Shown here in pieces: positions 3,182-13,800 of a DNA stretch of 41,032 nucleotides (position 1 is its first letter; each line of letters starts with the position of its first letter). The stretch is from a virus. The position numbers were made by a program, and so were the translations under genes. The notes under the pieces were generated by a model. It was not told where the DNA came from. It saw only the letters and a program-made list of their open reading frames with translations, and did not search any database. Location of the stretch: the UHGV virus genome UHGV-0278189; one strand, 5' to 3'.

Positions 3182-3461
3182 ACTTTCTCCTGTTTACTAT
3201 CTATAAGCCAGTCAATTATTGATGACTAAACCCGCATAGTAAACCATATATGAATCATTATTGTTCCGTATCATATATCTCAATAAAAGTACTAATGATT
3301 TTACAGAACGAGCCAGCAGAGTGGGGGCAGTTGTACAGGAACCATAGACTTAATTTTGTATTTAATAATGCTATGGTGTAATAAACCTGAACATGTATTT
3401 AAAATACGTACTGATTCATGATAGAATTCAAAGATAACTTTTCACAAACTCCGTTTTTGAT

Positions 3462-3490
3462 ACCCGCAAAATATTGCGGGCTTTTTTTTA
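3462..3490. terminator. Hairpin at 3' end of tailspike gene (weak terminator)
   Basis: cccgcaaaatattgcggg with A/T runs on both sides; overlaps tailspike stop codon; T-run is on the + strand side so function on the - strand is uncertain. Confidence 0.4.
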
Positions 3491-6400
3491 ACGTTCTTCC
3501 AGAGACTGAATCCGCTCTTTTATCTTATCCATTTCTCTGCGCTGCCATGCTGCCTCGATATAGAATAAGAGATCAGGTCTGACCCCCCATCTAGATCCTG
3601 CTGGCGTTATTTCAACGCGCTCAATGATGTCTTCCATTACCATCACTGGATTATCATCCTCATCAACAATGATGCTCCCGTCATTATCAGTCAGCGGCAT
3701 TTCCCTTTGGCCAGTAATGACGTCATCATATACTGCGGGATAATCGTCATAGCAAAGAAAGGCATAGCGGCATGTTGTGCTTTCTTCTTCCATGAGTCCG
3801 TGAGAAATAAGAACATCACGAAGTTGCTGCGCGATTACACCATGATGTATCCTCGCCCCTTCTTCCCCCTTTATAGCGACAGCGTTCAGCCATTTATAAG
3901 CGATATACCTGACGTCACCCCAGGCATCCAGCAATGCTTCGTCAGGAGAGACCGGCTCTGTCTTTAATGTTCCGTCACTGGTAACCACAGGATTGGAGCC
4001 AAGATAAACTGTCGAGAACCTGTTTCCCGGACCACCAAGAGCATTTACATTATCAAGATAAGGTTTAACATCTCCGTTCTCAAAAAGATGTTCGAGTGCG
4101 TTATATACCGCGCGACGTGGAGTACTGCTTCCGGAACCATGCAACGTTATCATTGCACCATCTGCTGAAGACGTTGTTTCACCGCCGCTAACGATTAATC
4201 TCTGAGCGGTAACATCATCAGACGGTACTTTCTTCGCAATAATGGCGTAATTACCCTCAAGTTTGACTTCCGCGCGAACTTGTCCTGATGTACCTGCATG
4301 GACAGTCAGTGACTGGACGGCAACATCATCTGTGAAATCAACGGGTACAGGAACCGTCCTCACGCCTGACGTCGACATAAAAGTAGGAAGCGTTCTGTTA
4401 GGAGTGGCTCCGTAGACAAAATCCCTTGAAACAAATTCTTCCTGTTTAATTTTCACCCTGAAACAATACAAATCAGCCGGGTGACCATCGTGAACATAAG
4501 GATATTTTCTGTTGTTATCCCCTATGCTCCATGGGTTTAGAAAGTCTTCCCCACCGAAAATGTAGTACAGCCAGTTGTCTTTGATACAAACTGAACCAAC
4601 ACCAACCGCAGAGTTAACTATTCCGCCCTGATAAATCTGATCAGTAACATTAACCCACTCTACATTATCCAGACTCCACTCATTGACGTTAACTCTGGTC
4701 ATAAATGTTCTTGGATAATTTCCTGCATAACGGTTATCAGGTTCTCCTCCTTCCCACTCACCAAATGCGCGCTCACTGCCAAAAATAATCAGCTCATCGC
4801 CAACTTTGGCAAAAGGAAGGTTTGAGTGATGAACATTATTTGGGAAGCGAAGAGAATTCCATGATGTACCTAAATCAGAGCTTCTGTGCAATGAACTACC
4901 GGGTTGAGTACTTAATGTCCCCCTGGTCGTCAGATACAGAATGCCATCATAATATTTTACACATGGCTCAGATGCATTCGCCTCATATTCTACAGGTATG
5001 CGTCTGCGAACAAAGCTACCAGGAGAACCGAAAGCATCAGAGAAATAGAGTATCCCAAGCTCGCGTGGACCAATATCACCATTATGGTAGCCAACAGCAA
5101 AACTGTTATCGCTAATCGTCGCAAAACTGTGAATCTCAGTAACAGGAGTGCTTCCGTCAACAAAAGAAGGAATAGTTCCAAGACTGGTTTTTCTCCATGG
5201 TGACGAGTGAAATGATGTGCCAAAACTCCAGTATCTACCCTCGTTATTCTGATCCACATCCTGGGTATTTTTCGTCGTAACTGTAAAGGTATTTTTATCA
5301 ATAACAGTAGTCACCGTCATATTCCCGGTAACACCTGTAACACCAGAGTTTGAGAAGTTGACAAAATCACCAGCAAATAATCCGTGATCAGTAATGCGAA
5401 TATAAGCGACTTGCTGATTTGCTGCTTTCGTTATACCACCATAAACGCGAAGGCTGCGACTCATTGGGCGATCCCACAACTCTGCAACCTGCAGTTTATT
5501 TCCGCTCACGGTCCGCGTCTCAATTACAGCAAAAAGGCGATTTCTGACAACCCCCATACTCATGCAGTGATAGTTAACTGTGGGATAGTTTTCATGTAAA
5601 TCTGTAAGCCATTCCGGCGTTGTCCAGGTCTTCCCGTCATCTCCTGAGCGAACCCATGCAACATGGAGGTTATTTACACCATGGCGGTCTCCAGCCATAA
5701 AAGGCGCATAGATGACATTGTCATATACAAACGTTTTATCCTGCGTCCAGGCGTTGTACCACGGTGTATCTGTAATTTTAAATAACTCTCCCTGGATAAA
5801 ATCTTCAGAAGCATAAAAAAGAGGTTGGCCCGGTATTCTCTCAAATAAAAAACGAGCATTTTTAAATCGACTGACATCCGGAAGAGTTGATACTTTAAAA
5901 GTAAGCCCTAATCCGTCAATTTTATAACCTGGAGATGAGGCTTCAAGGCACGCGCTTATTGCAGTGGAATCGTCATTTATACCATCACCAACAGCTCCAA
6001 AATCTTTGGGGCTAATAGCATCACGCATTTTATCCTGGAACGTTCGGTACACAGCCCCAGAACCATACTGAATAAACCAACCAAAACCACCAACAACCCC
6101 GGAGATTGCAGCATCGACATAATTACGCATTGAGCGATTATTTACAGCGTCCTGCTCAAATGATGGATCTGCAAGGTTAGAAATTTTGTTTTGCTTTGCA
6201 TCGTAATATTTTGCAAGCAAAGATGGTTTCATCAATGCACGTCTGAACCACCCAAAACATTGCTGGATCAGCATCGTCAGATAGTCAAAGGCATCTTCAT
6301 GCACCTCGGGGAAAAATTTTCCCTGATTACGAAGATCAGTCTCCTGCACCACATCAAGCACACGATCTATCGTAATTCGCCATCCAGCAGCAAGCGGCGA

Positions 6401-6607
6401 CGGAAGAACAACAGAACCGCCACTATAAGTGCCCGCCCCAGTTACCGTATAACCGGTATCCAGTACTAGTTCTGTTACGTTACCGTTAAGGTCAGACACC
6501 TGAACAACCAGGTCGGATTTTTTGAAAATACGGAAGGTATACGGAAATGATGTCGTAACGCCGTTACCAGTGTATTCGTTGTGGTCAACTTCGGTTGAGA
6601 CCGTCAT
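3488..6607 (-). CDS. Tailspike with Asp-box (BNR) beta-propeller-like region and C-terminal intramolecular chaperone-like domain; possible endosialidase
   Basis: 1039 aa; N-terminus MTVSTEVDHNEYTGNGVTTSFPYTFRIFKKSDLVVQV looks like a conserved particle-binding domain; two Asp-boxes (SGDDGKTW, SSDLGTSW); last ~160 aa resemble the self-cleaving chaperone domain of endosialidases and some tail fibers, with a Ser-x4-Lys pattern (TSDGTLK); GGAG RBS. Confidence 0.7.
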   Translation of the reverse strand: MTVSTEVDHNEYTGNGVTTSFPYTFRIFKKSDLVVQVSDLNGNVTELVLDTGYTVTGAGTYSGGSVVLPSPLAAGWRITIDRVLDVVQETDLRNQGKFFPEVHEDAFDYLTMLIQQCFGWFRRALMKPSLLAKYYDAKQNKISNLADPSFEQDAVNNRSMRNYVDAAISGVVGGFGWFIQYGSGAVYRTFQDKMRDAISPKDFGAVGDGINDDSTAISACLEASSPGYKIDGLGLTFKVSTLPDVSRFKNARFLFERIPGQPLFYASEDFIQGELFKITDTPWYNAWTQDKTFVYDNVIYAPFMAGDRHGVNNLHVAWVRSGDDGKTWTTPEWLTDLHENYPTVNYHCMSMGVVRNRLFAVIETRTVSGNKLQVAELWDRPMSRSLRVYGGITKAANQQVAYIRITDHGLFAGDFVNFSNSGVTGVTGNMTVTTVIDKNTFTVTTKNTQDVDQNNEGRYWSFGTSFHSSPWRKTSLGTIPSFVDGSTPVTEIHSFATISDNSFAVGYHNGDIGPRELGILYFSDAFGSPGSFVRRRIPVEYEANASEPCVKYYDGILYLTTRGTLSTQPGSSLHRSSDLGTSWNSLRFPNNVHHSNLPFAKVGDELIIFGSERAFGEWEGGEPDNRYAGNYPRTFMTRVNVNEWSLDNVEWVNVTDQIYQGGIVNSAVGVGSVCIKDNWLYYIFGGEDFLNPWSIGDNNRKYPYVHDGHPADLYCFRVKIKQEEFVSRDFVYGATPNRTLPTFMSTSGVRTVPVPVDFTDDVAVQSLTVHAGTSGQVRAEVKLEGNYAIIAKKVPSDDVTAQRLIVSGGETTSSADGAMITLHGSGSSTPRRAVYNALEHLFENGDVKPYLDNVNALGGPGNRFSTVYLGSNPVVTSDGTLKTEPVSPDEALLDAWGDVRYIAYKWLNAVAIKGEEGARIHHGVIAQQLRDVLISHGLMEEESTTCRYAFLCYDDYPAVYDDVITGQREMPLTDNDGSIIVDEDDNPVMVMEDIIERVEITPAGSRWGVRPDLLFYIEAAWQRREMDKIKERIQSLEER

Positions 6608-6710
6608 GTTAAATCTCCAGATAGTCGCAGCACCCGTTGCGCCGCATATCTGGTTATTCTATTACCTGAAAAACCACATATGGATAGAAAGACTGTGAAT
6701 ACGAATAGAT

Positions 6711-6727: not shown

Positions 6728-6802
6728 TTGCAAAACGTGCTGGATAGCAAACAAATTATTTGATACTGTATAAATATACAGTTATTGCATGGAGAAGATA
6801 AG

Positions 6803-7060
6803 ATGCAGCAGTATCACTATCCACTGGAAGACGGATTTACCGAAAGGATTCACACGCCGGGAGGCGTCAGATCACTGGTGGAGGGATCGCACTTGATGAA
6901 ATTACTCCGGGATCTCGATAAGGATGGATTTAATGTCGATGGCCCACTTGCCGAACTGACTGCACTGATTAACTACGTCACCAGCTCACAGATGTCTATG
7001 CAGGATCTGCAAACACATCTCGACTATTGTGCCGAACAATTACGAAAACAAACCACATAA
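6803..7060 (+). CDS. Small protein paralogous to the C-terminal domain of the antirepressor
   Basis: 85 aa from ATG 6803 (GGAGAA RBS at 6791-6796; ORF track starts at TTG 6785); aligns by eye with the C-terminus of the 8206-8898 product (shared LM.LL, DG, AELT, QTH..Y). Confidence 0.55.
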   Translation: MQQYHYPLEDGFTERIHTPGGVRSLVEGSHLMKLLRDLDKDGFNVDGPLAELTALINYVTSSQMSMQDLQTHLDYCAEQLRKQTT

Positions 7061-7066
7061 AGAAAA

Positions 7067-7082
7067 GGCCGCTCTAGCGGCC
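7067..7082. terminator. Bidirectional terminator between convergent genes
   Basis: GGCCGC-tcta-GCGGCC hairpin with A-rich and T-rich flanks; overlaps stop of 7082-7810 gene. Confidence 0.6.
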
Positions 7083-7810
7083 TATCGTTTCGCTTTGTGC
7101 TCGTCCCAGCACGTTTTGCACCATGCCATTAAGCCGTCCGCATTTTGATTATTAGGGTAAAAGCTAGTTCGTTTTCTGCGGACATTACAAATTGGGCACC
7201 ACTTCATATGGCGTGTATTCTTTGGGCCATCGAGACACCTTGCACACCACTTAGTCAATCCATCTGGATTTTTTGACGATTTCCTGAATTTTTCATATGG
7301 AAGGTTTATTCTGCATCGCAAGCACTGCTTGCTACCACTTGAAACTCTGTTAGCTGATTCTTCTTTTGGCGGCGATACAGAAGGTATTCTTGCTGGCTCT
7401 GATACTGCCTGAGGTGCTTTTTTAGATGACTGAGACGATATGTCATCACCAGGGAATCTTCCATGATATGCCGGACGCGTTGACACTCCGGGTGGAAGCT
7501 CAGCTGTAAACGGCTTTGGCTGAATCAGTTGCCTCTCTTTTGCTAACTCCTGCTGTTTATAATATGTCTGGATTACCGCGCTATCATAAGCAGGAGGTAC
7601 GGAAATATTAGGCGCATTATCTCCCGTTTTTTGAAACTGAGTGGAGGTGTGTTCTATCACCTGTGTACGATTAATCGTTATCTCCCCATCTTCAGTCTTT
7701 ATCGTTTTGTTATGATTAACGACCGTACGATCAGAGATCTTAGTCTTGTTCTGGTTGATAACGTAAATAATCACCGCAACCACACCAACAACTACCCAGA
7801 AAACTTCCAT
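7082..7810 (-). CDS. Single-pass membrane protein with C-terminal tandem CxxC zinc-ribbon motifs (function unknown)
   Basis: 242 aa; N-terminal TM helix (VFWVVVGVVAVIIYVI); C-terminus has four CxxC motifs (CLRC, CARC, CPIC, CKTC) in two ribbon-like pairs; GAGGA RBS; operator-like site 20 bp upstream. Confidence 0.6.
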   Translation of the reverse strand: MEVFWVVVGVVAVIIYVINQNKTKISDRTVVNHNKTIKTEDGEITINRTQVIEHTSTQFQKTGDNAPNISVPPAYDSAVIQTYYKQQELAKERQLIQPKPFTAELPPGVSTRPAYHGRFPGDDISSQSSKKAPQAVSEPARIPSVSPPKEESANRVSSGSKQCLRCRINLPYEKFRKSSKNPDGLTKWCARCLDGPKNTRHMKWCPICNVRRKRTSFYPNNQNADGLMAWCKTCWDEHKAKR

Positions 7811-7829
7811 TGCCTTTCCTCACAATAAC

Positions 7830-7846
7830 ATTACCTTAAAGGTAAT
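7830..7846. promoter_or_regulatory. Operator-like palindrome TTACC-N5-GGTAA (copy 2)
   Basis: aTTACCttaaaGGTAAt, 20 bp upstream of the 7810 start codon and in the antirepressor leader. Confidence 0.6.
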
Positions 7847-7922
7847 ATCTTGCTTTCAGGTGATCAAGCGTTAAACGCAATCAACCAAATACGGTTGATT
7901 TTAATATTTCTTCGCGTTTATC

Positions 7923-7939
7923 ATTACCTTTGCGGTAAA
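7923..7939. promoter_or_regulatory. Operator-like palindrome TTACC-N5-GGTAA (copy 3)
   Basis: aTTACCtttgcGGTAAa in the 395-bp leader upstream of the antirepressor gene. Confidence 0.6.
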
Positions 7940-8205
7940 TTTACATCGCACTCCTCTTGTGCCATAGTAATCGGGCACTGGCAAAATCCAGTGCCGGGAT
8001 TGGTCTCCCGGATTACTACAGAGGCACATATGCCGCATAAGCGGTTTTTTTATGTGTAAAGCGCACCTATTCTATGGTGGGCTGTGTGGGGGCACCGAAA
8101 GGTGCGCCGGGTTCCTTTGTAGCCGGTAAGACCAACTCTGCACAGTTCACCACCATCTGATTGGTCTCAGCGGTGGTGATTAACCTAACTACAAAGGTGA
8201 TCGCC

Positions 8206-8898
8206 ATGAATACCAAACCTTCCATCTTTTCCTTTGAGTCATCCTGCCAGATCCGTATGTTCATGATTGACGGAGAACCTTGGTTTGTCACCAAAGATGT
8301 GTGCAATGCTTTGAATATTGATGTTACACAAGCGAGAAAACTTGATAAAAAAGGCTGGAACAAAAAGGGGCTGTATTCAATACAGACCCCTGGTGGAATA
8401 CAAGAACTATCCATCGTTTCAGAATCAGGTCTCTACATCCTTATTCTGCGTTGCAAAGAGGCAATGACTGAGGGAACGAGAGCATTCAGATTTCTTGAAT
8501 GGGTTACAGGTGAGGTTCTTCCTCAGATCCGCCGCACCGGAAGTTACATTAAAAACTCGCTCCCGCAGGAAGAACGCATAAAGATGGTTGCCGACCAGGT
8601 AGCCAACGCCACAGCATCAGCAGTGATGCAGGCAATGAAGATAGAGAACAAAACCTACAGTGCCCCACTGAAGCCCGGCTACCGCAGCCTGATTCATTCT
8701 CCGTCTGGTGTTCTCGGCCTGACGGAGAACTCATTGCTTATGAATCTGCTAAACCAGTTACAGGAAGACGGGCACGACGTATCGGGCGCGGCGGCGGAGC
8801 TGACCACCATGTTCTGCTACATCGTCGGTGTGAGCAAATGCCTGCGTGATATCCAGACCCACGCGGAGTACATCAACGACAAGGCAGGGTTCTTCTGA
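8206..8898 (+). CDS. Antirepressor (Bro-N-like N-terminus, Ant/KilAC-like C-terminus)
   Basis: 230 aa from ATG 8206 with AAAGGTGA RBS (ORF track starts at TTG 8161); N-terminal segment FMIDGEPWFVTKDVCNAL typical of Bro-N/antirepressor proteins. Confidence 0.7.
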   Translation: MNTKPSIFSFESSCQIRMFMIDGEPWFVTKDVCNALNIDVTQARKLDKKGWNKKGLYSIQTPGGIQELSIVSESGLYILILRCKEAMTEGTRAFRFLEWVTGEVLPQIRRTGSYIKNSLPQEERIKMVADQVANATASAVMQAMKIENKTYSAPLKPGYRSLIHSPSGVLGLTENSLLMNLLNQLQEDGHDVSGAAAELTTMFCYIVGVSKCLRDIQTHAEYINDKAGFF

Positions 8899-8963
8899 CG
8901 GGCGGTGGCACAGGGATGTGCCTTTAAAATAATCATTGGCGATGTGATGTAGATTCGCGTAAT

Positions 8964-8980
8964 ATTACCTTACGGGTAAG
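8964..8980. promoter_or_regulatory. Operator-like palindrome TTACC-N5-GGTAA (copy 4)
   Basis: aTTACCttacgGGTAAg between antirepressor and 9039 gene. Confidence 0.6.
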
Positions 8981-9038
8981 AAAGCGTTTTTAATCTTCCC
9001 TTCAAAACGCGTCCTGTAGCCAAACATGGGAGGACGAA

Positions 9039-9671
9039 ATGAAAACAAATACAACAAGAAAAGCGATGCCATACATTATCCCAGAAGCAGATTTCGACAG
9101 AAAACTGAACATGTCTGAGAAGAACACTAGTCACACCGAAAGCTACTTAGCGAAAGGTGTGGTTGATTTCGTTCTTCCGGGATTCACAACACCTTATGGT
9201 TATCGCCTTGTAAAATCTTGTAATGGCGATCATTACAGAATGATTACTACCAGCGATACTCCAGAAACGGTGTATGCGGTTAAGTTAATCTTTCGGGAAG
9301 ATATCGTCGAAGCTAAAAGAACATGTACGCAGATCATGGTATGGCGTACGCCTAATGTTATTCATGACCGTGCTGTTCATGGTTTGCCTCAGATTTTTTT
9401 TCAGTTCTTTCTAGAGCAATATGCGATCGTTGTATCTGATGAGCAACAAACAATCGATGGGAGAAGATTCTGGGAAAGAATGATTTCTTGGGCTATAAAC
9501 ACCCCGGGATATAATGTATACGTTTCAGATGGCTCTGAAGAAGATAGACCTCTTAGCTTCATGACATCATGGGATGATTTCTATAGCCAGTGGGCTGATT
9601 TCTGTTGGGGCAGTGATAAAGATGTGCATACCCACAGACTACTGGTTATAAGCAAAGATAAACTGCATTAA
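9039..9671 (+). CDS. Hypothetical cytoplasmic protein (accessory/moron)
   Basis: 210 aa; GGGAGG RBS; followed by strong terminator; no family recognised. Confidence 0.6.
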   Translation: MKTNTTRKAMPYIIPEADFDRKLNMSEKNTSHTESYLAKGVVDFVLPGFTTPYGYRLVKSCNGDHYRMITTSDTPETVYAVKLIFREDIVEAKRTCTQIMVWRTPNVIHDRAVHGLPQIFFQFFLEQYAIVVSDEQQTIDGRRFWERMISWAINTPGYNVYVSDGSEEDRPLSFMTSWDDFYSQWADFCWGSDKDVHTHRLLVISKDKLH

Positions 9672-9676
9672 TAGAA

Positions 9677-9697
9677 GCCCGCAGCGCGGGCTTTTTT
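9677..9697 (+). terminator. Rho-independent terminator
   Basis: GCCCGC-agc-GCGGGC followed by TTTTTT. Confidence 0.8.
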
Positions 9698-9728
9698 GTG
9701 GACGAAACAAAAGTCAGTGCTACACTCA

Positions 9729-9756
9729 TTGACGCCACATTGAGGTGGCTTATAGA
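9729..9756 (+). promoter_or_regulatory. Putative sigma70 promoter for small secreted-peptide gene
   Basis: TTGACG (9729-9734), 16-bp spacer, TATAGA (9751-9756); lies between two terminators. Confidence 0.35.
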
Positions 9757-9769
9757 TGGAAATTTCACA

Positions 9770-9931
9770 ATGAAAAAAGCATTTGCTGCACTGTTCGTTT
9801 TGTTGTCTCTGGTAGCTTCAACTCAGGCCTTTGCCGGTCGTTGTCAGCACGACAGCGATACTGCCGCTGACGGCTCCCGCTGCGGTGGGCGTTCTGCGGA
9901 TTCCCGCCCGGGCGGCGGTGGCATTCGTTAA
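9770..9931 (+). CDS. Small secreted Cys-containing peptide (53-aa precursor)
   Basis: MKKAFAALFVLLSLVASTQAFA signal peptide with AxA site; ~31-aa Gly/Arg/Asp-rich mature part with 2 Cys; flanked by terminators; start chosen at internal ATG of ORF 9698..9931. Confidence 0.45.
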   Translation: MKKAFAALFVLLSLVASTQAFAGRCQHDSDTAADGSRCGGRSADSRPGGGGIR

Positions 9932-9936
9932 AAACA

Positions 9937-9954
9937 AGGCCGCGAAAGCGGCCT
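9937..9954. terminator. Bidirectional terminator
   Basis: aGGCCGC-gaaa-GCGGCCt hairpin; T-run on the - strand side (ttgttttt), serving the 9961-10812 gene. Confidence 0.65.
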
Positions 9955-9960
9955 GTTTGA

Positions 9961-10812
9961 TCACTGTGCAGTTTTCGCTGATCGATTTTCAGCTCTAAAT
10001 TCAAGAACCGTTTCAATATTTCTTTCCTTCAGCATATCAATAACATTTTTATTCATTTGACTATCACTGGTTAATAACTGGTAAACGTTGCTTCTCTCTT
10101 TATCAGAATTTTCTTTAACAGCTGCTTTGCATGCCAAATGCTTATTGAAATTTTCTACATCGCTAGTACAGGAATTTACGGCTGCTGATGAAATATCAGA
10201 CGCTGAAGAAACACCATCATCCAAACGTTTTATAGCATTTTCTATACATGAGTTAAGGGAATAAACGACAACTGAGCGATACCCTTCAGACGCACACCAT
10301 TCTAAATTTCTTGAAGGATCGAGTGGTTTTACTTCGCTGGATTGAATTAACTTGTCAAAAACTGACTTATATTCAATCTGTTTTTTATCTATAGCCCATA
10401 CTTCAGTAGCTGATTTATAATTCCCCGTATGCCTATTAACATCAAATCCATGTTTTATAAGCAAATCTGCCCATGAAAGATTTATTGATTCATTGTTATG
10501 AGGCCATTTTCCTGTCAGAACCGCCCCCATAGACCCCATATATCCGCCATATGATGGTATAGCACCATGGCTCAGTAACTTCTCAGCAACCACAGGGCAA
10601 TTAATTACATAAGAGGCGTAAAGCCCATTCCATAAAGCCCCTCTATAGTAATCGCCACGATTAGGTTCTTTTAAGTCGATAGCCTTTGATAATTGTTCAC
10701 ACGTTTTGCATGCATCAAAGTTATCCTTATTGCATTGCAATGAACTGGCGGCTGTAGGATTTACAGAGACTATTGAAAGCACTATGCCAAAAAACAAATT
10801 TATTTTTTTCAT
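9961..10812 (-). CDS. Secreted Cys-rich protein, AT-rich gene (possible superinfection-exclusion or lysogenic-conversion factor)
   Basis: 283 aa with Sec signal peptide (MKKINLFFGIVLSIVSVNPTAAS); many Cys; start 1 nt after stop of the 1129-aa gene; visibly AT-rich compared with neighbours. Confidence 0.65.
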   Translation of the reverse strand: MKKINLFFGIVLSIVSVNPTAASSLQCNKDNFDACKTCEQLSKAIDLKEPNRGDYYRGALWNGLYASYVINCPVVAEKLLSHGAIPSYGGYMGSMGAVLTGKWPHNNESINLSWADLLIKHGFDVNRHTGNYKSATEVWAIDKKQIEYKSVFDKLIQSSEVKPLDPSRNLEWCASEGYRSVVVYSLNSCIENAIKRLDDGVSSASDISSAAVNSCTSDVENFNKHLACKAAVKENSDKERSNVYQLLTSDSQMNKNVIDMLKERNIETVLEFRAENRSAKTAQ

Positions 10813-10813
10813 C

Positions 10814-13800
10814 CTATTTCATCTGCTCTTCAACTTTATTTAGTAATGGTGATATCGCCCACAGATTCTGAAAAGGTAGCATTTTACGGACAGCGTGGGT
10901 TTGCTGGCTGTCAAATTCTCCGTTAAGTACACCATTTGCAACCGTCGCGGCATCACCGCCAAGATCAAAGGTAGGACCAAGTAAAGCACCAATAGCATTA
11001 CGACTCTGAAACCTTGATACCGGAGGCGCACCAAACATCGCGCCAAGACCAAACCTACCGCCGCTTATGTTCTCAACGGTATTCAGCGGCTCAGAGAGCC
11101 AGCCAAGCATTCCGCCCCGGTCGATCCCCTCTTTCACAAGGTTATTCCAGCTGTAGTCGATATCGCGACCGCTTAACTTCTGTTTCATCATATAGACCAT
11201 TGAGCCAAGCGCAATCGTGCCAAGCGCACCAAGATAGAATGAAGCATCGCCCTGCTGGATACCAGATACCAACACCCTGTTATGCTGTGCGAAGATAAAC
11301 GTTTTGAACTGCGTGATCATCTTCCAGCCTTCTTTACTAAAAAACAGCGGTGTATCACCTACGCCAGGCGTTACAATCACTGAGTCTACATCTTTCAGCA
11401 CTGCAGACTGGAAAATCTCTCTAGCGAAACGGTCATCCCACAGATGACTATGCCCGGTTAACAGCCCGTCCATATCCTCTCCGTGCTTCCCGAATTGCTC
11501 CCCGATTCGGCGCAGAACATCTTCATTGATGCCGACCTGTGCCATCTTCCGCATTTCACTTTTGGCGAGCGTGCCACCAGCAGAAACCTGGCGAGCCGCG
11601 TCAAGTATCCTCGACTGCACTATCATCCCGGACCATGATTTAAGTGCGCTGTTCCACTGATTCATCAGCGTCCAGTTACCGAATTTCTGCGTCATCCAGT
11701 TCAGGCCTCGCTCAGCGGCGCTTCTCCGGCTATAGGGGTCAGTAAGATCCGCTATAGCCTTTGTACGCGTAGACAGGACATAATCAAGCCCAACGGCCAT
11801 TTCTCGCAAATCCCTGGTTGCAATTTTCACTGAGTCCATATTTTTAAGCATGCTTACCATTGGTCCGAGAGATTTTCTCAGGCCATGCTGCATCATCGGT
11901 CGCATCAGATCAGTTGCAGCGGAGACGGTCATTCCACCAAGCAAACGGAGGAAGTTAATATTCCTAGCAACTCGCCCGGCACGAACAAAGAAACTGCGTG
12001 GATCTTGAGGTGCGCCGTAAGTACCAAGCAGTCGGTCACGCATAGCCGTAATATCCCTAATATCAGCCTCCCGTTGCTTCTCAAGAGCTGCACGTCGTTT
12101 AGGTGTTTTAGCCTCTTTTATTAGCCGGGTATATTCCTCACTAACCTGACGGATTTGCTCCCCCATATCTTTACGGCCAAACTGCGCAGTCAGCTCAATT
12201 TCTGGTGCCACCTGCCGGAGATAACTTTCCATGATGTAGTTAACATCTGATTCAAGAAAATCTTCTATACGCTCATCAGGAATAAGCAGCGTTCGGCTTT
12301 TAGTGAAACCAGCCCGACCAACGAGTCTCTCTGGGATAATATCGGCTGGTACAAGCCCGGAAGGTGCGCCTATTATTTTATTCACGATCTCGTCAGCAGC
12401 GTCCTCTGCTTCCTCTCGGGATAGAGGCTCCATCTGCTTCAGTGCTCGCTCGCGGCTTGCATTCAGCCTTGTGGTTGAATTTGCCCGTTTTTGCAGTCGG
12501 CGAAGCTCAGAACGATATTTCCGTGGATTATCCAGCAACTCCATATGGCGCTGATAGACAGGAAGCTCACTCTTTGCCTGCGCTATATCATCAAGGCGTG
12601 TTTTAAGGTCAGAGCTTTCTTTCATCATTCTTGCCTGAAGTTTTTCTGATGAAGTCTCGGCCAACTCTTTTTCTATTCTTGTAAGACGCGCCTGTGTGTC
12701 AGTCTCCTGAGATATAAGCTTATTTCGTTTATCCAGTTCTTCCATGAGTAGAATTTTTTTACCAGACCATTTCTCCGCTTCAGCGATTTCACTAGCGAGA
12801 GCATCAGCGCGCGGTGCCGATTCCTCTGCAGTTTTTAGCAATGAATTTATCCTTTCAATTCGCTGACCTGCTTTGTCAGCACCTTTGGCACTAATCCCTT
12901 GTATCCAGTTGGCAATTCGCCCTCTGAATTCAGTGCGGTCGGAAAGTATCTTATCGAACTTATAAATGCGGGGAAGATAACTTTTCGCCGTCACGACATC
13001 GATATCCTCAGGAAGGATCCCCAGTTCCTGCATACGGGCTTTTGTGGTCTCGAAAATGGGGCGGATTCTGGCGGCTGCTTGTGAAACCTCAGGAATATCA
13101 CTCTGATCACCACGGCGCATAGCCATGCCAACAGCTTCATTGAAATCAATAAAGCTCATCCTCTTCACGCCGCGGGCGCTGACAGATTTGCTGTACTGCT
13201 GGTAAGCATCACGAGTGGCTTCCATCTGCTTATAAAGCATGGCGTCGTATTGCTTAATCTTAGTCTCGACTGCCGTAAACGTAGCCAACCCCTCATCATT
13301 TTTGGCGAAGAAATAGTTATTTTCGGCAAGCTGCTGGTTAATCTGACGGGAGACAAGAGATGGTGATTGCGCCAAGCGGCCAGCAGGAGTGACACTCAAC
13401 GTTTTGTTAGCAAGTCCAAGTCCAGCGAGCTGTTCCTGATCGAGTGTGGTATTGAAAACCTGAGCTGCACCAATGCTTTGAGGAGAATCCATACCTCGCA
13501 AATGATTACCTACTGAGTTAACCACTGCCTCGCGCGCGCTAGGTCCAGCAAGTAGCTGTGCACCAGCACCAAGGATCCCACCAACGAGAGCATCAACAAC
13601 AACGTTCGATACGCTCTCCATCGGTGAGCGAGCTTCCTGAGTGGCCTGCAATGCGGCCTCTGAAGCAACACTGCCAGCAGCATTGGCTAAAGCAAAACGT
13701 CCGGCTGTTTCTGCAATACGACCGCCACGAACGACAGCGCCGAACGGAATAAACATAGAAATCGCATTGAATGGATCTGCTAATCTCATTGCTACAGAAG

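Follow-up and report, generated by a model that had tools for sequence, protein, structure and literature searches.

A prophage cassette encoding a predicted exported peptide of a widespread Cys-containing mini-domain family

The virus genome UHGV-0278189, a stretch of 41,032 nucleotides analysed here at its full length (the window), carries a small open reading frame (ORF) of 53 codons lodged between two transcription terminators. This locus raises a plain question: is the ORF a gene in its own right, and if so, what does its product do? A first-pass annotation, made from the sequence without database searches, described it as an insulated moron encoding a small secreted peptide with cysteines. 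The follow-up presented here reaches a similar outline. We consider it likely that positions 9676-9956 form an autonomous moron unit, and that the encoded peptide is exported through the general secretory (Sec) pathway and has a putative envelope-ligand role.

The small ORF and its export signal

The precursor, MKKAFAALFVLLSLVASTQAFAGRCQHDSDTAADGSRCGGRSADSRPGGGGIR, is 53 residues long and occupies 9770-9931 on the plus strand, from an ATG at 9770 to a TAA at 9929-9931. A mechanical ORF list extends the same frame to a GTG at 9698, giving 77 residues. This GTG-started version (phrog_3117) was rejected, as the extension falls in the terminator and promoter and lacks conservation; the MKK start at 9770 is preferred because the conservation of homologues starts only at MKK. 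The coding sequence has two parts:

9770-9835, plus strand: signal peptide coding part, residues 1-22 (MKKAFAALFVLLSLVASTQAFA), recognised by its n-, h- and c-regions and the -3/-1 rule
9836-9931, plus strand: mature peptide coding part, residues 23-53 (GRCQHDSDTAADGSRCGGRSADSRPGGGGIR), with the stop codon, recognised by cross-phylum conservation and by the ratio of nonsynonymous to synonymous substitution rates (dN/dS)

Evidence that this frame is protein-coding comes from 99 distinct coding sequences. Across them, dN/dS is 0.09 for the whole ORF, with 0.17 in the signal peptide and 0.047 in residues 23-49. In the mature core, dS is about 1.4, with synonymous sites near saturation, and dN is about 0.07. 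These values indicate that selection acts on the protein, not on the RNA or the terminator alone. In Escherichia, Klebsiella, Enterobacter, Cronobacter, Franconibacter, Kluyvera and Buttiauxella the mature part hardly varies, whereas the signal peptide has diverged, and the same pattern holds in Rahnella, Rouxiella, Pantoea, Pectobacterium, Dickeya and Tolumonas. Residues C25, D30, A32, D34, G35, S36, R37, C38, G39, R41, G48 and G49 are invariant even across phyla. Judged by this pattern, the small ORF is a real protein-coding gene under strong purifying selection and no chance feature. The first-pass annotation had named a lack of reading-frame conservation in relatives as one finding that would speak against it; the frame is conserved. 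Could the block nevertheless be kept for its late-operon terminator and as a recombination hotspot, with the ORF incidental? A terminator without the ORF does exist in phage phiV10, and breakpoints cluster at terminators; the near-saturated synonymous sites of a barely changing core, together with homologous peptides in unrelated contexts across phyla, make this explanation barely credible.

Export signals were assessed by rule, using a basic n-region, a hydrophobic h-region, small residues at -3/-1 and the absence of a lipobox as criteria. The precursor shows a basic n-region MKK, a hydrophobic h-region AFAALFVLLSLVA and the sequence STQAFA/G (the slash marks the cut), and it has no lipobox. 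Its A-x-A site follows Ala22 (AFA/G), two residues before Cys25. Among relatives without a lipobox, a -3/-1 site lies 0-2 residues ahead of the first Cys in 72/72, and a Lys or Arg occurs within the first six residues in 71/72. By these sequence criteria the precursor is a pre-protein of the Sec and signal peptidase I route; a lipoprotein reading of the E. coli peptide was discarded, there being no lipobox. The mature part that would remain has 31 residues, with 8 Gly, 5 Arg, 4 Asp and 2 Cys (C25 and C38), both Cys being invariant. Two elements of the first-pass annotation, a 53-residue precursor with a signal peptide and a Gly/Arg/Asp-rich mature part of about 31 residues with two Cys, are thus confirmed.

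The protein is already present in databases. The exact protein is listed in RefSeq as WP_000708858.1, a 'hypothetical protein', and identical sequences occur in TL-2011b, phiv142-3 (Orf11), HEMP4 and EC.W1-9. Hidden Markov model (HMM) comparison matches it over its full length (residues 1-53 of 53) to PHROG 14503 at E = 2.3e-40, a 'membrane associated protein' group in the category 'moron, auxiliary metabolic gene and host takeover'. In phage TL-2011b (gp43) and in Klebsiella Uetakeviruses it is named 'transmembrane anchored protein'. The PHROG 14503 and NCBI entries represent the same family as the small ORF, but they supply names only and no function.

The name suggests another explanation, in which an uncleaved, membrane-anchored small protein functions within the inner membrane, as MgrB, phage D3 Iap and Sie-type proteins do, and the helix is the functional part. 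Beyond the NCBI and phage annotations, it draws on the AlphaFold2 (AF2) model of the phage peptide, where residues 2-22 form one confident helix, and on relatives in which the motif lies beside genuine transmembrane segments. Yet the hydrophobic segment is the least conserved part of the protein, as its higher dN/dS indicates, and the A-x-A site stands right before the motif in every relative without a lipobox. In cyanobacteria the segment is swapped for a lipoprotein signal, and inside larger proteins the motif occurs without it. In Iap-type peptides, by comparison, the transmembrane helix itself is the conserved functional part, which counts against the analogy. We regard a membrane-anchored product as unlikely, and the 'transmembrane anchored' label as probably wrong because the features indicate a cleavable signal peptide.

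A mini-domain family beyond phages

Comparison with cellular genomes indicates that phages did not invent the exported peptide, which represents a widespread cellular mini-domain in stand-alone form. The core motif reads C-x4-D-x-A-x-DGSRCG-x-R-x4-R-P-GG and spans 25 residues. A scan of species representatives, with one genome per species, finds 57 loci. Outside Enterobacterales, carriers on the Rhizobiales side include Mesorhizobium, Devosia, Methylobacterium, Rhizobium, Bradyrhizobium, Agrobacterium, Microvirga, Kaistia and Aureimonas, and further carriers are cyanobacteria (Anabaena, Dolichospermum, Nostoc and others), Vibrio, Bacteriovorax, Rhodoferax and a Polyangiaceae genome. Almost all of these relatives are precursors of 46-60 residues, with the signal directly before the core and the stop right past RPGG-x. 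Cyanobacteria and some Beijerinckiaceae use a lipoprotein signal with a lipobox in place of the signal peptide.

The genomic settings of these relatives differ. Across 44 non-enterobacterial loci there are no conserved gene neighbours; the Mesorhizobium and Anabaena copies lie in housekeeping surroundings, with ABC-transporter, LysR, LacI, polyprenyl-synthetase and PAP2-like genes. When viral contigs are searched with a Mesorhizobium-led profile, the best 80 are still of the enterobacterial type, many of them about 40 kb long. Since cellular neighbours are unshared and the best 80 viral contigs are of the enterobacterial type, the gene looks cellular outside Enterobacterales. Within Enterobacterales, 7/13 species-representative loci share other genes with the window, and each of these seven shares Uetakevirus-type genes such as the tailspike N-terminus, BRO-N or holins. 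Two Mesorhizobium chromosomal copies have a mature part nearer to the phage clade (SADSRPGG) than to other Rhizobiales (RAASERPGG), and the mature part of one viral contig is 94% identical to one of these copies. This likeness hints at recent transfer, in either direction.

Larger searches extend the family. A profile search of 1.84 billion representatives returns 464 clusters at E <= 1e-3, and a broader profile returns 1,774 clusters (90% identity) at E <= 1e-3, spread over Proteobacteria and Cyanobacteria; the best 120 of these 1,774 are unnamed or 'hypothetical' and have no Pfam domain. In some proteins the core follows a signal peptide and precedes a transmembrane helix with a cytoplasmic domain; in others it precedes a Pro-rich linker that leads to a secreted domain. 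It also closes lipoproteins or secreted proteins at their extreme C-terminus, is repeated in tandem, or stands behind an SH3_3 domain. Seven proteins (P0078, P0104, P0120, P0125, P0129, P0149 and P0157) combine a signal or lipobox, an N-terminal domain, a transmembrane-like segment and a C-terminal motif. P0087, a protein with chitin-binding repeats, was set aside as a false positive of the profile search.

The core also lies within a large secreted family of about 90 residues with a second Cys pair, YSGNCPCPYN-x-A-x-NGSRCGKRSAYSRPGG-x-SPLCYP-x-DV. Its members come from Acinetobacter, Cobetia and Pantoea and are all 'hypothetical' (for example P0243 from Acinetobacter shaoyimingii). They resemble the phage peptide in the core C...[DN]GSRCG-x-RSA...RPGG, match no Pfam family, and give an AF2 model without a structural neighbour in the PDB.

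Known families offer little guidance. In Pfam the peptide has no match at E <= 10, and Spackle appears at E = 0.065 in one of 26 family members. The only NCBIfam match is weak (E = 0.07, a His-Xaa-Ser repeat precursor), PDB sequences searched with the profile give 0 matches, and in PADLOC the peptide and six neighbours match 0 families. Resemblances to EF-hand, Excalibur and sulfatase motifs, judged by eye, were rejected because of mismatches at key positions. Searching the literature by name, accession or sequence fragment returns nothing on the small ORF, which also goes undiscussed in the phiv142-3 and ZX5 papers.

What, then, might the module bind? Peptides so small and so conserved usually bind something fundamental. 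The tiny core, its invariant Asp, Ser, Arg and Gly residues, the probable disulfide loop, the lack of partner genes and the reuse of the module together point to a ligand role. The peptide most likely binds some small, unchanging ligand outside the cytoplasm; candidates are a metal ion, peptidoglycan or another part of the envelope. By the same pattern, a fast-evolving protein is the less likely partner.

The cassette, its regulatory parts and its prophage setting

In this prophage the module is packaged with its own regulatory parts, which are arranged as follows:

9676-9956, plus strand: conserved cassette of terminator, putative promoter, 5' hairpin, ORF and terminator, about 280 bp, delimited by block breakpoints
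9673-9697, plus strand: intrinsic terminator ending the upstream plus-strand genes (stem 9673-9682/9686-9695, U-tract 9692-9697)
9696-9703, plus strand: weak -35-like region TTGTGGAC, overlapping the end of the terminator T-tract, read from the sequence
9718-9726, plus strand: candidate extended -10 element TGcTACACT (TG 9718-9719, hexamer TACACT 9721-9726)
9734-9749, plus strand: stem-loop GCCAC-ATTGAG-GTGGC at the predicted mRNA 5' end, marked by covariation
9750-9760, plus strand: conserved box, TTATAGATGGA here and CTACACATGG[A/T] in most genera, found in the alignments and holding a Shine-Dalgarno (SD)-like GGA at 9758-9760
9932-9961, both strands: bidirectional intrinsic terminator (A-tract, stem 9937-9954, T-tract), shared with the convergent late operon

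The boundaries are sharp. When 90 related loci are aligned by blastn to window positions 9000-10900, alignments end on the left at 9675/9676 in 63 loci and on the right at 9956 in 73; Megablast matches in E. coli genomes likewise begin at query position 76/77, corresponding to 9675/9676 of the window. On either side the cassette meets about eight unrelated contexts. Upstream neighbours include a 210-residue protein, a YafO toxin and a DUF2335 protein, among others, and downstream neighbours include a 283-residue protein and Ant, among others. Occurrence is patchy. The small ORF is found in 499/5,426 complete E. coli genomes (~9%), in about 305 IMG/VR contigs, and in only 12/50,697 isolated-phage records, all from Escherichia or Klebsiella; most Uetakeviruses lack it. 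Guanine-plus-cytosine (GC) content is 57-59% in the ORF versus 39-45% upstream and 31-39% downstream.

Phage phiV10 has the tailspike / BRO-N / terminator / virion-protein order of the window, but its ORF is cut to the last 8 codons (GGGGIR*). When phiV10 3440-3560 is compared with window 9860-9965, this relic and the terminator are joined to unrelated sequence annotated as a 29-residue ORF (PhiV10p22). The relic looks like a recombination scar within the small ORF.

Patchy presence among syntenic relatives, flanking factor-independent terminators and deviant base composition are features by which morons are recognised, and by its sequence behaviour the cassette is an autonomous, insulated accessory unit of this kind. 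The earlier view of an insulated moron-like unit is borne out by a block that stays conserved while both neighbours change and by the 3' relic in phiV10.

Both flanking hairpins fold strongly. The upstream terminator begins 2 nt past the stop of a 210-residue ORF (9039-9671) and belongs to the conserved block; it consists of a G+C-rich hairpin followed by U6, with a folding energy of -15.3 kcal/mol (z = -3.0). The downstream hairpin, GGCCGC-GAAA-GCGGCC at 9937-9954, reaches -17.5 kcal/mol on the plus strand (z = -4.4) and -16.5 on the minus strand, and is kept in phiV10, where it is annotated as a terminator.

Promoter assignment depends on comparison across genera. The T, A and final T of the TAnnnT -10 hexamer never change among 27 diverse upstream variants, which come from at least 10 genera, and are near-invariant in a second alignment, with TACAAT, TAAAAT and TACTTT among the forms found elsewhere. 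The TTGTGGAC region matches TTGACA at 2-3 of 6 positions at 17-19 nt spacing, and other genera have an nTGGnn motif at a similar -35 distance; 9696-9703 may thus serve as a poor -35 region. Within the E. coli cassette, the pair closest to consensus is TTGACG (9729-9734) and TATAGA (9751-9756) with a 16-nt spacer, probably the candidate meant in the first-pass annotation. As the main promoter it was rejected: it lacks the -7 T, would give a leader of 5-7 nt without an SD sequence, and is absent from other genera. The conserved candidate for a sigma70 promoter of the ORF is therefore the invariant -10 element and not the TTGACG/TATAGA pair. We infer from these features a weak-to-moderate sigma70 promoter, with a transcript that would start with a protective 5' hairpin.

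The hairpin itself is conserved in structure. It follows the hexamer by six to nine nucleotides, at the point where the transcript is expected to begin. A 5-bp stem lies 3-10 nt past the -10 element in 56/65 unique upstream variants, versus a mean of 1.8 and a maximum of 7 in 1000 shuffles. The stem occurs in 20 variants, such as GCCGC/GCGGC, GCCGT/ATGGC, TTGCC/GGCAA and GCTGC/GCAGA. In an unfitted MAFFT alignment, 84.4% of stem cells pair and both sides change in 3/5 pairs. The covariation score of the stem is 0.332, compared with 0.257 after shuffling (0/500 exceed it) and 0.016-0.14 in slid controls. Conservation of the hairpin with compensatory changes thus appears real, though it stems from few independent events. 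The 5' element is found once in the window, and Rfam holds no match to the stem-loop, with only sub-threshold chance matches in 9500-10100.

Between hairpin and start codon, the SD-like GGA lies 9 nt ahead of the ATG, and a GGA or AGG is found at 8-12 nt in all genera. Conservation across genera of the CTACACATGG box (TTATAGATGG in E. coli), which lies in this interval, exceeds what an SD sequence alone would need. That 9726-9731 might pair with the start codon was considered and dismissed, as no such pairing is evident in other genera.

The wider setting is an epsilon15/phiV10-like (Uetakevirus) prophage. At this locus the window is 99.6% identical to K1-type chromosomes of extraintestinal pathogenic E. 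coli (ExPEC) and avian pathogenic E. coli (APEC), namely IHE3034 and APEC O18. Three regions frame the cassette:

3488-6607, minus strand: endosialidase tailspike, with an annotated endosialidase catalytic beta-propeller domain
6785-9671, plus strand: accessory region with BRO-N/anti-repressor genes
from 10814 onward, minus strand: convergent late operon with internal virion proteins

Given the endosialidase domain in its tailspike, the prophage presumably has K1 polysialic-acid capsule specificity for ExPEC/APEC hosts. Two neighbouring genes have features of their own. A 242-residue protein (7082-7810, minus strand; phrog_6762, unknown function) shows weak C-terminal matches to endonuclease VII and to Lar-like restriction-alleviation proteins, and may be another host-interaction gene of the accessory region. 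A 283-residue ORF (9961-10812, minus strand) at the distal end of the late operon has an N-terminal signal peptide, MKKINLFFGIVLSIVSVNPTAASS, and a GC content of 31-39%. It has no Pfam or PADLOC match, only phrog_6118 (unknown function), and is swapped for other genes in related phages. Its signal peptide, low GC content and replacement in relatives give it the look of a second moron-like exported cargo.

The neighbourhood also invites a second explanation, that the peptide acts in superinfection exclusion or enzyme inhibition, directed against peptidoglycan-degrading ejection proteins (as with T4 Spackle) or against lysozymes (as with Ivy and MliC). A small, predicted periplasmic and prophage-borne peptide would suit this role. 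The adjacent internal virion proteins of the late operon carry endolysin/transglycosylase domains, and the family has soluble and lipoprotein forms, as in PliC/MliC. The CKPHDC loop of Ivy superficially resembles the C-Q-H-D of the peptide loop, but His27 is unconserved beyond the enterobacterial and Mesorhizobium clade. The peptide shows no sequence relation to Ivy, PliC/MliC or Spackle beyond the single sub-threshold Spackle match in Pfam, matches nothing in PADLOC, and has a core that is near-identical across phyla, which would be unusual for an inhibitor of fast-evolving phage proteins. We rate Spackle- or Ivy-type inhibition as improbable and below a general ligand role, because the core is too conserved and the His of CQHD is not conserved.

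The same surroundings speak to a third explanation, in which the small, Gly-rich, Cys-containing product is a modified peptide or bacteriocin precursor, a microcin-like toxin against competitors; the weak NCBIfam match to a His-Xaa-Ser repeat precursor would fit this. Its signal is of the Sec type and not a double-glycine leader, and no maturation, export or immunity genes lie nearby in the window or in related loci, which share no conserved synteny. Neighbours are an anti-repressor, a protein of unknown function and virion proteins, and the same core is embedded in larger proteins. A bacteriocin role is therefore very improbable.

Proposed function and comparison with known systems

Taken as an exported envelope peptide, the product can be placed in a working scheme. 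The upstream terminator would block read-through from the accessory/anti-repressor genes, and the sigma70-type promoter, with its extended -10 TGcTACACT and poor -35, would start transcription at about 9732-9735. The transcript would open with the conserved stem-loop, which probably protects the short mRNA by analogy with the ompA 5' hairpin. The SD-like GGA would direct translation from ATG 9770, Sec would export the 53-residue product, and signal peptidase I would cleave it after Ala22, as sequence rules and the conservation pattern suggest. Cleavage would free a 31-residue periplasmic peptide in which Cys25 and Cys38 probably close a 12-residue loop, and the transcript would end at the bidirectional terminator shared with the late operon. 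In a lysogen the free peptide might, more speculatively, mask its ligand and alter the envelope, affecting for instance the entry of superinfecting phages or resilience. A fuller account is put forward only tentatively. It holds that the peptide is the shortest independent form of an ancient, undescribed extracytoplasmic Cys-loop module (C-x12-C-G-x-R ... R-P-G-G) for an invariant envelope ligand, captured from bacteria by enterobacterial podoviruses as a lysogenic-conversion factor with its own promoter and an mRNA-stabilising 5' hairpin.

Several observations weigh against this picture. The AF2 model gives the mature part no confident fold, with predicted local distance difference test (pLDDT) scores of 45-62. 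A consensus promoter scan finds no site in the cassette by its own criteria, because the -35 is poor. The high GC content of the ORF may just reflect its Gly, Arg, Ala, Asp and Pro codons, which favour GC, and is thus no proof of foreign origin. On the plus strand the downstream terminator ends in GTTTGAT, a weak U-tract, whereas the minus strand has the good T-run TGTTTTTAAC; it therefore appears to be a shared bidirectional terminator whose better face ends the late operon, and the consensus scan calls its hairpin on the minus strand only. The two strong terminators of the first-pass annotation thus hold as far as folding is concerned, but the downstream one mainly serves the late operon and is weaker for the small ORF. 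In some relatives, the transmembrane-like segment before the motif could place the motif in the cytoplasm, which weakens the view that it is always extracytoplasmic. In quantitative reverse transcription PCR of all phiv142-3 genes, which compares serum with lysogeny broth (LB) without absolute levels, Orf11 falls outside the 14 serum-induced genes (PMC7724020). Finally, the proposed ligand binding draws solely on the conservation pattern and the domain architectures.

As a phage feature the cassette is ordinary, a moron with exported cargo that is already catalogued as a hypothetical protein. What is new is that this cargo belongs to a large, deeply conserved and undescribed mini-domain family that is not phage-specific. 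From E. coli and Klebsiella prophages to rhizobia and cyanobacteria its core hardly changes, and many unrelated envelope proteins reuse it. For study, the prophage copy is a convenient starting point: it is one gene, its regulatory parts are defined, and its product is short enough to be made synthetically. Moreover, its E. coli carriers include K1 ExPEC and APEC strains, and the cassette sits in an accessory region where, in the related APEC prophage phiv142-3, a neighbouring gene is reported to matter: the 52-residue orf10 raises serum resistance and K1 capsule gene expression (PMC7724020). There orf10 lies at 6498-6656 and the small ORF (Orf11) at 6901-7062, with a gap of 245 bp; in this window orf10 is absent upstream of the cassette.

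Comparison with known systems helps to locate the cassette. Classical morons are the lambda genes bor and lom and those of HK97 and HK022, the latter reportedly defined by Juhala et al. 2000. Like them, it is an extra gene between phage modules, with a promoter-like element, terminators, deviant composition, patchy presence and a predicted envelope-targeted product. It differs in that its predicted mature product is far smaller, at 31 residues, and is neither a lipoprotein nor an outer-membrane protein; in addition, its cargo comes from a widespread cellular family and is no known virulence factor, and the cassette is known here from sequence.

Among small exported proteins, T4 Spackle (Sp), a periplasmic superinfection exclusion protein, is likewise phage-encoded, small and Sec-exported, the last being a prediction for the peptide. 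Spackle is about 97 residues long, helical and confined to T4-like phages, without sequence similarity to the peptide, whereas the peptide has homologues in non-host phyla. The lysozyme inhibitors Ivy and PliC/MliC share with the family a small exported form and the coexistence of soluble and lipid-anchored versions, and Ivy has a disulfide-closed loop. They are folded domains of 100-150 residues compared with a 25-residue core, and show no homology in Pfam or in the PDB sequence search. MgrB comes close to the precursor in size (47-53 residues), in its hydrophobic N-terminus and in two conserved periplasmic cysteines. It is uncleaved and of a different sequence, whereas here a variable hydrophobic part is followed by a signal-peptidase site.

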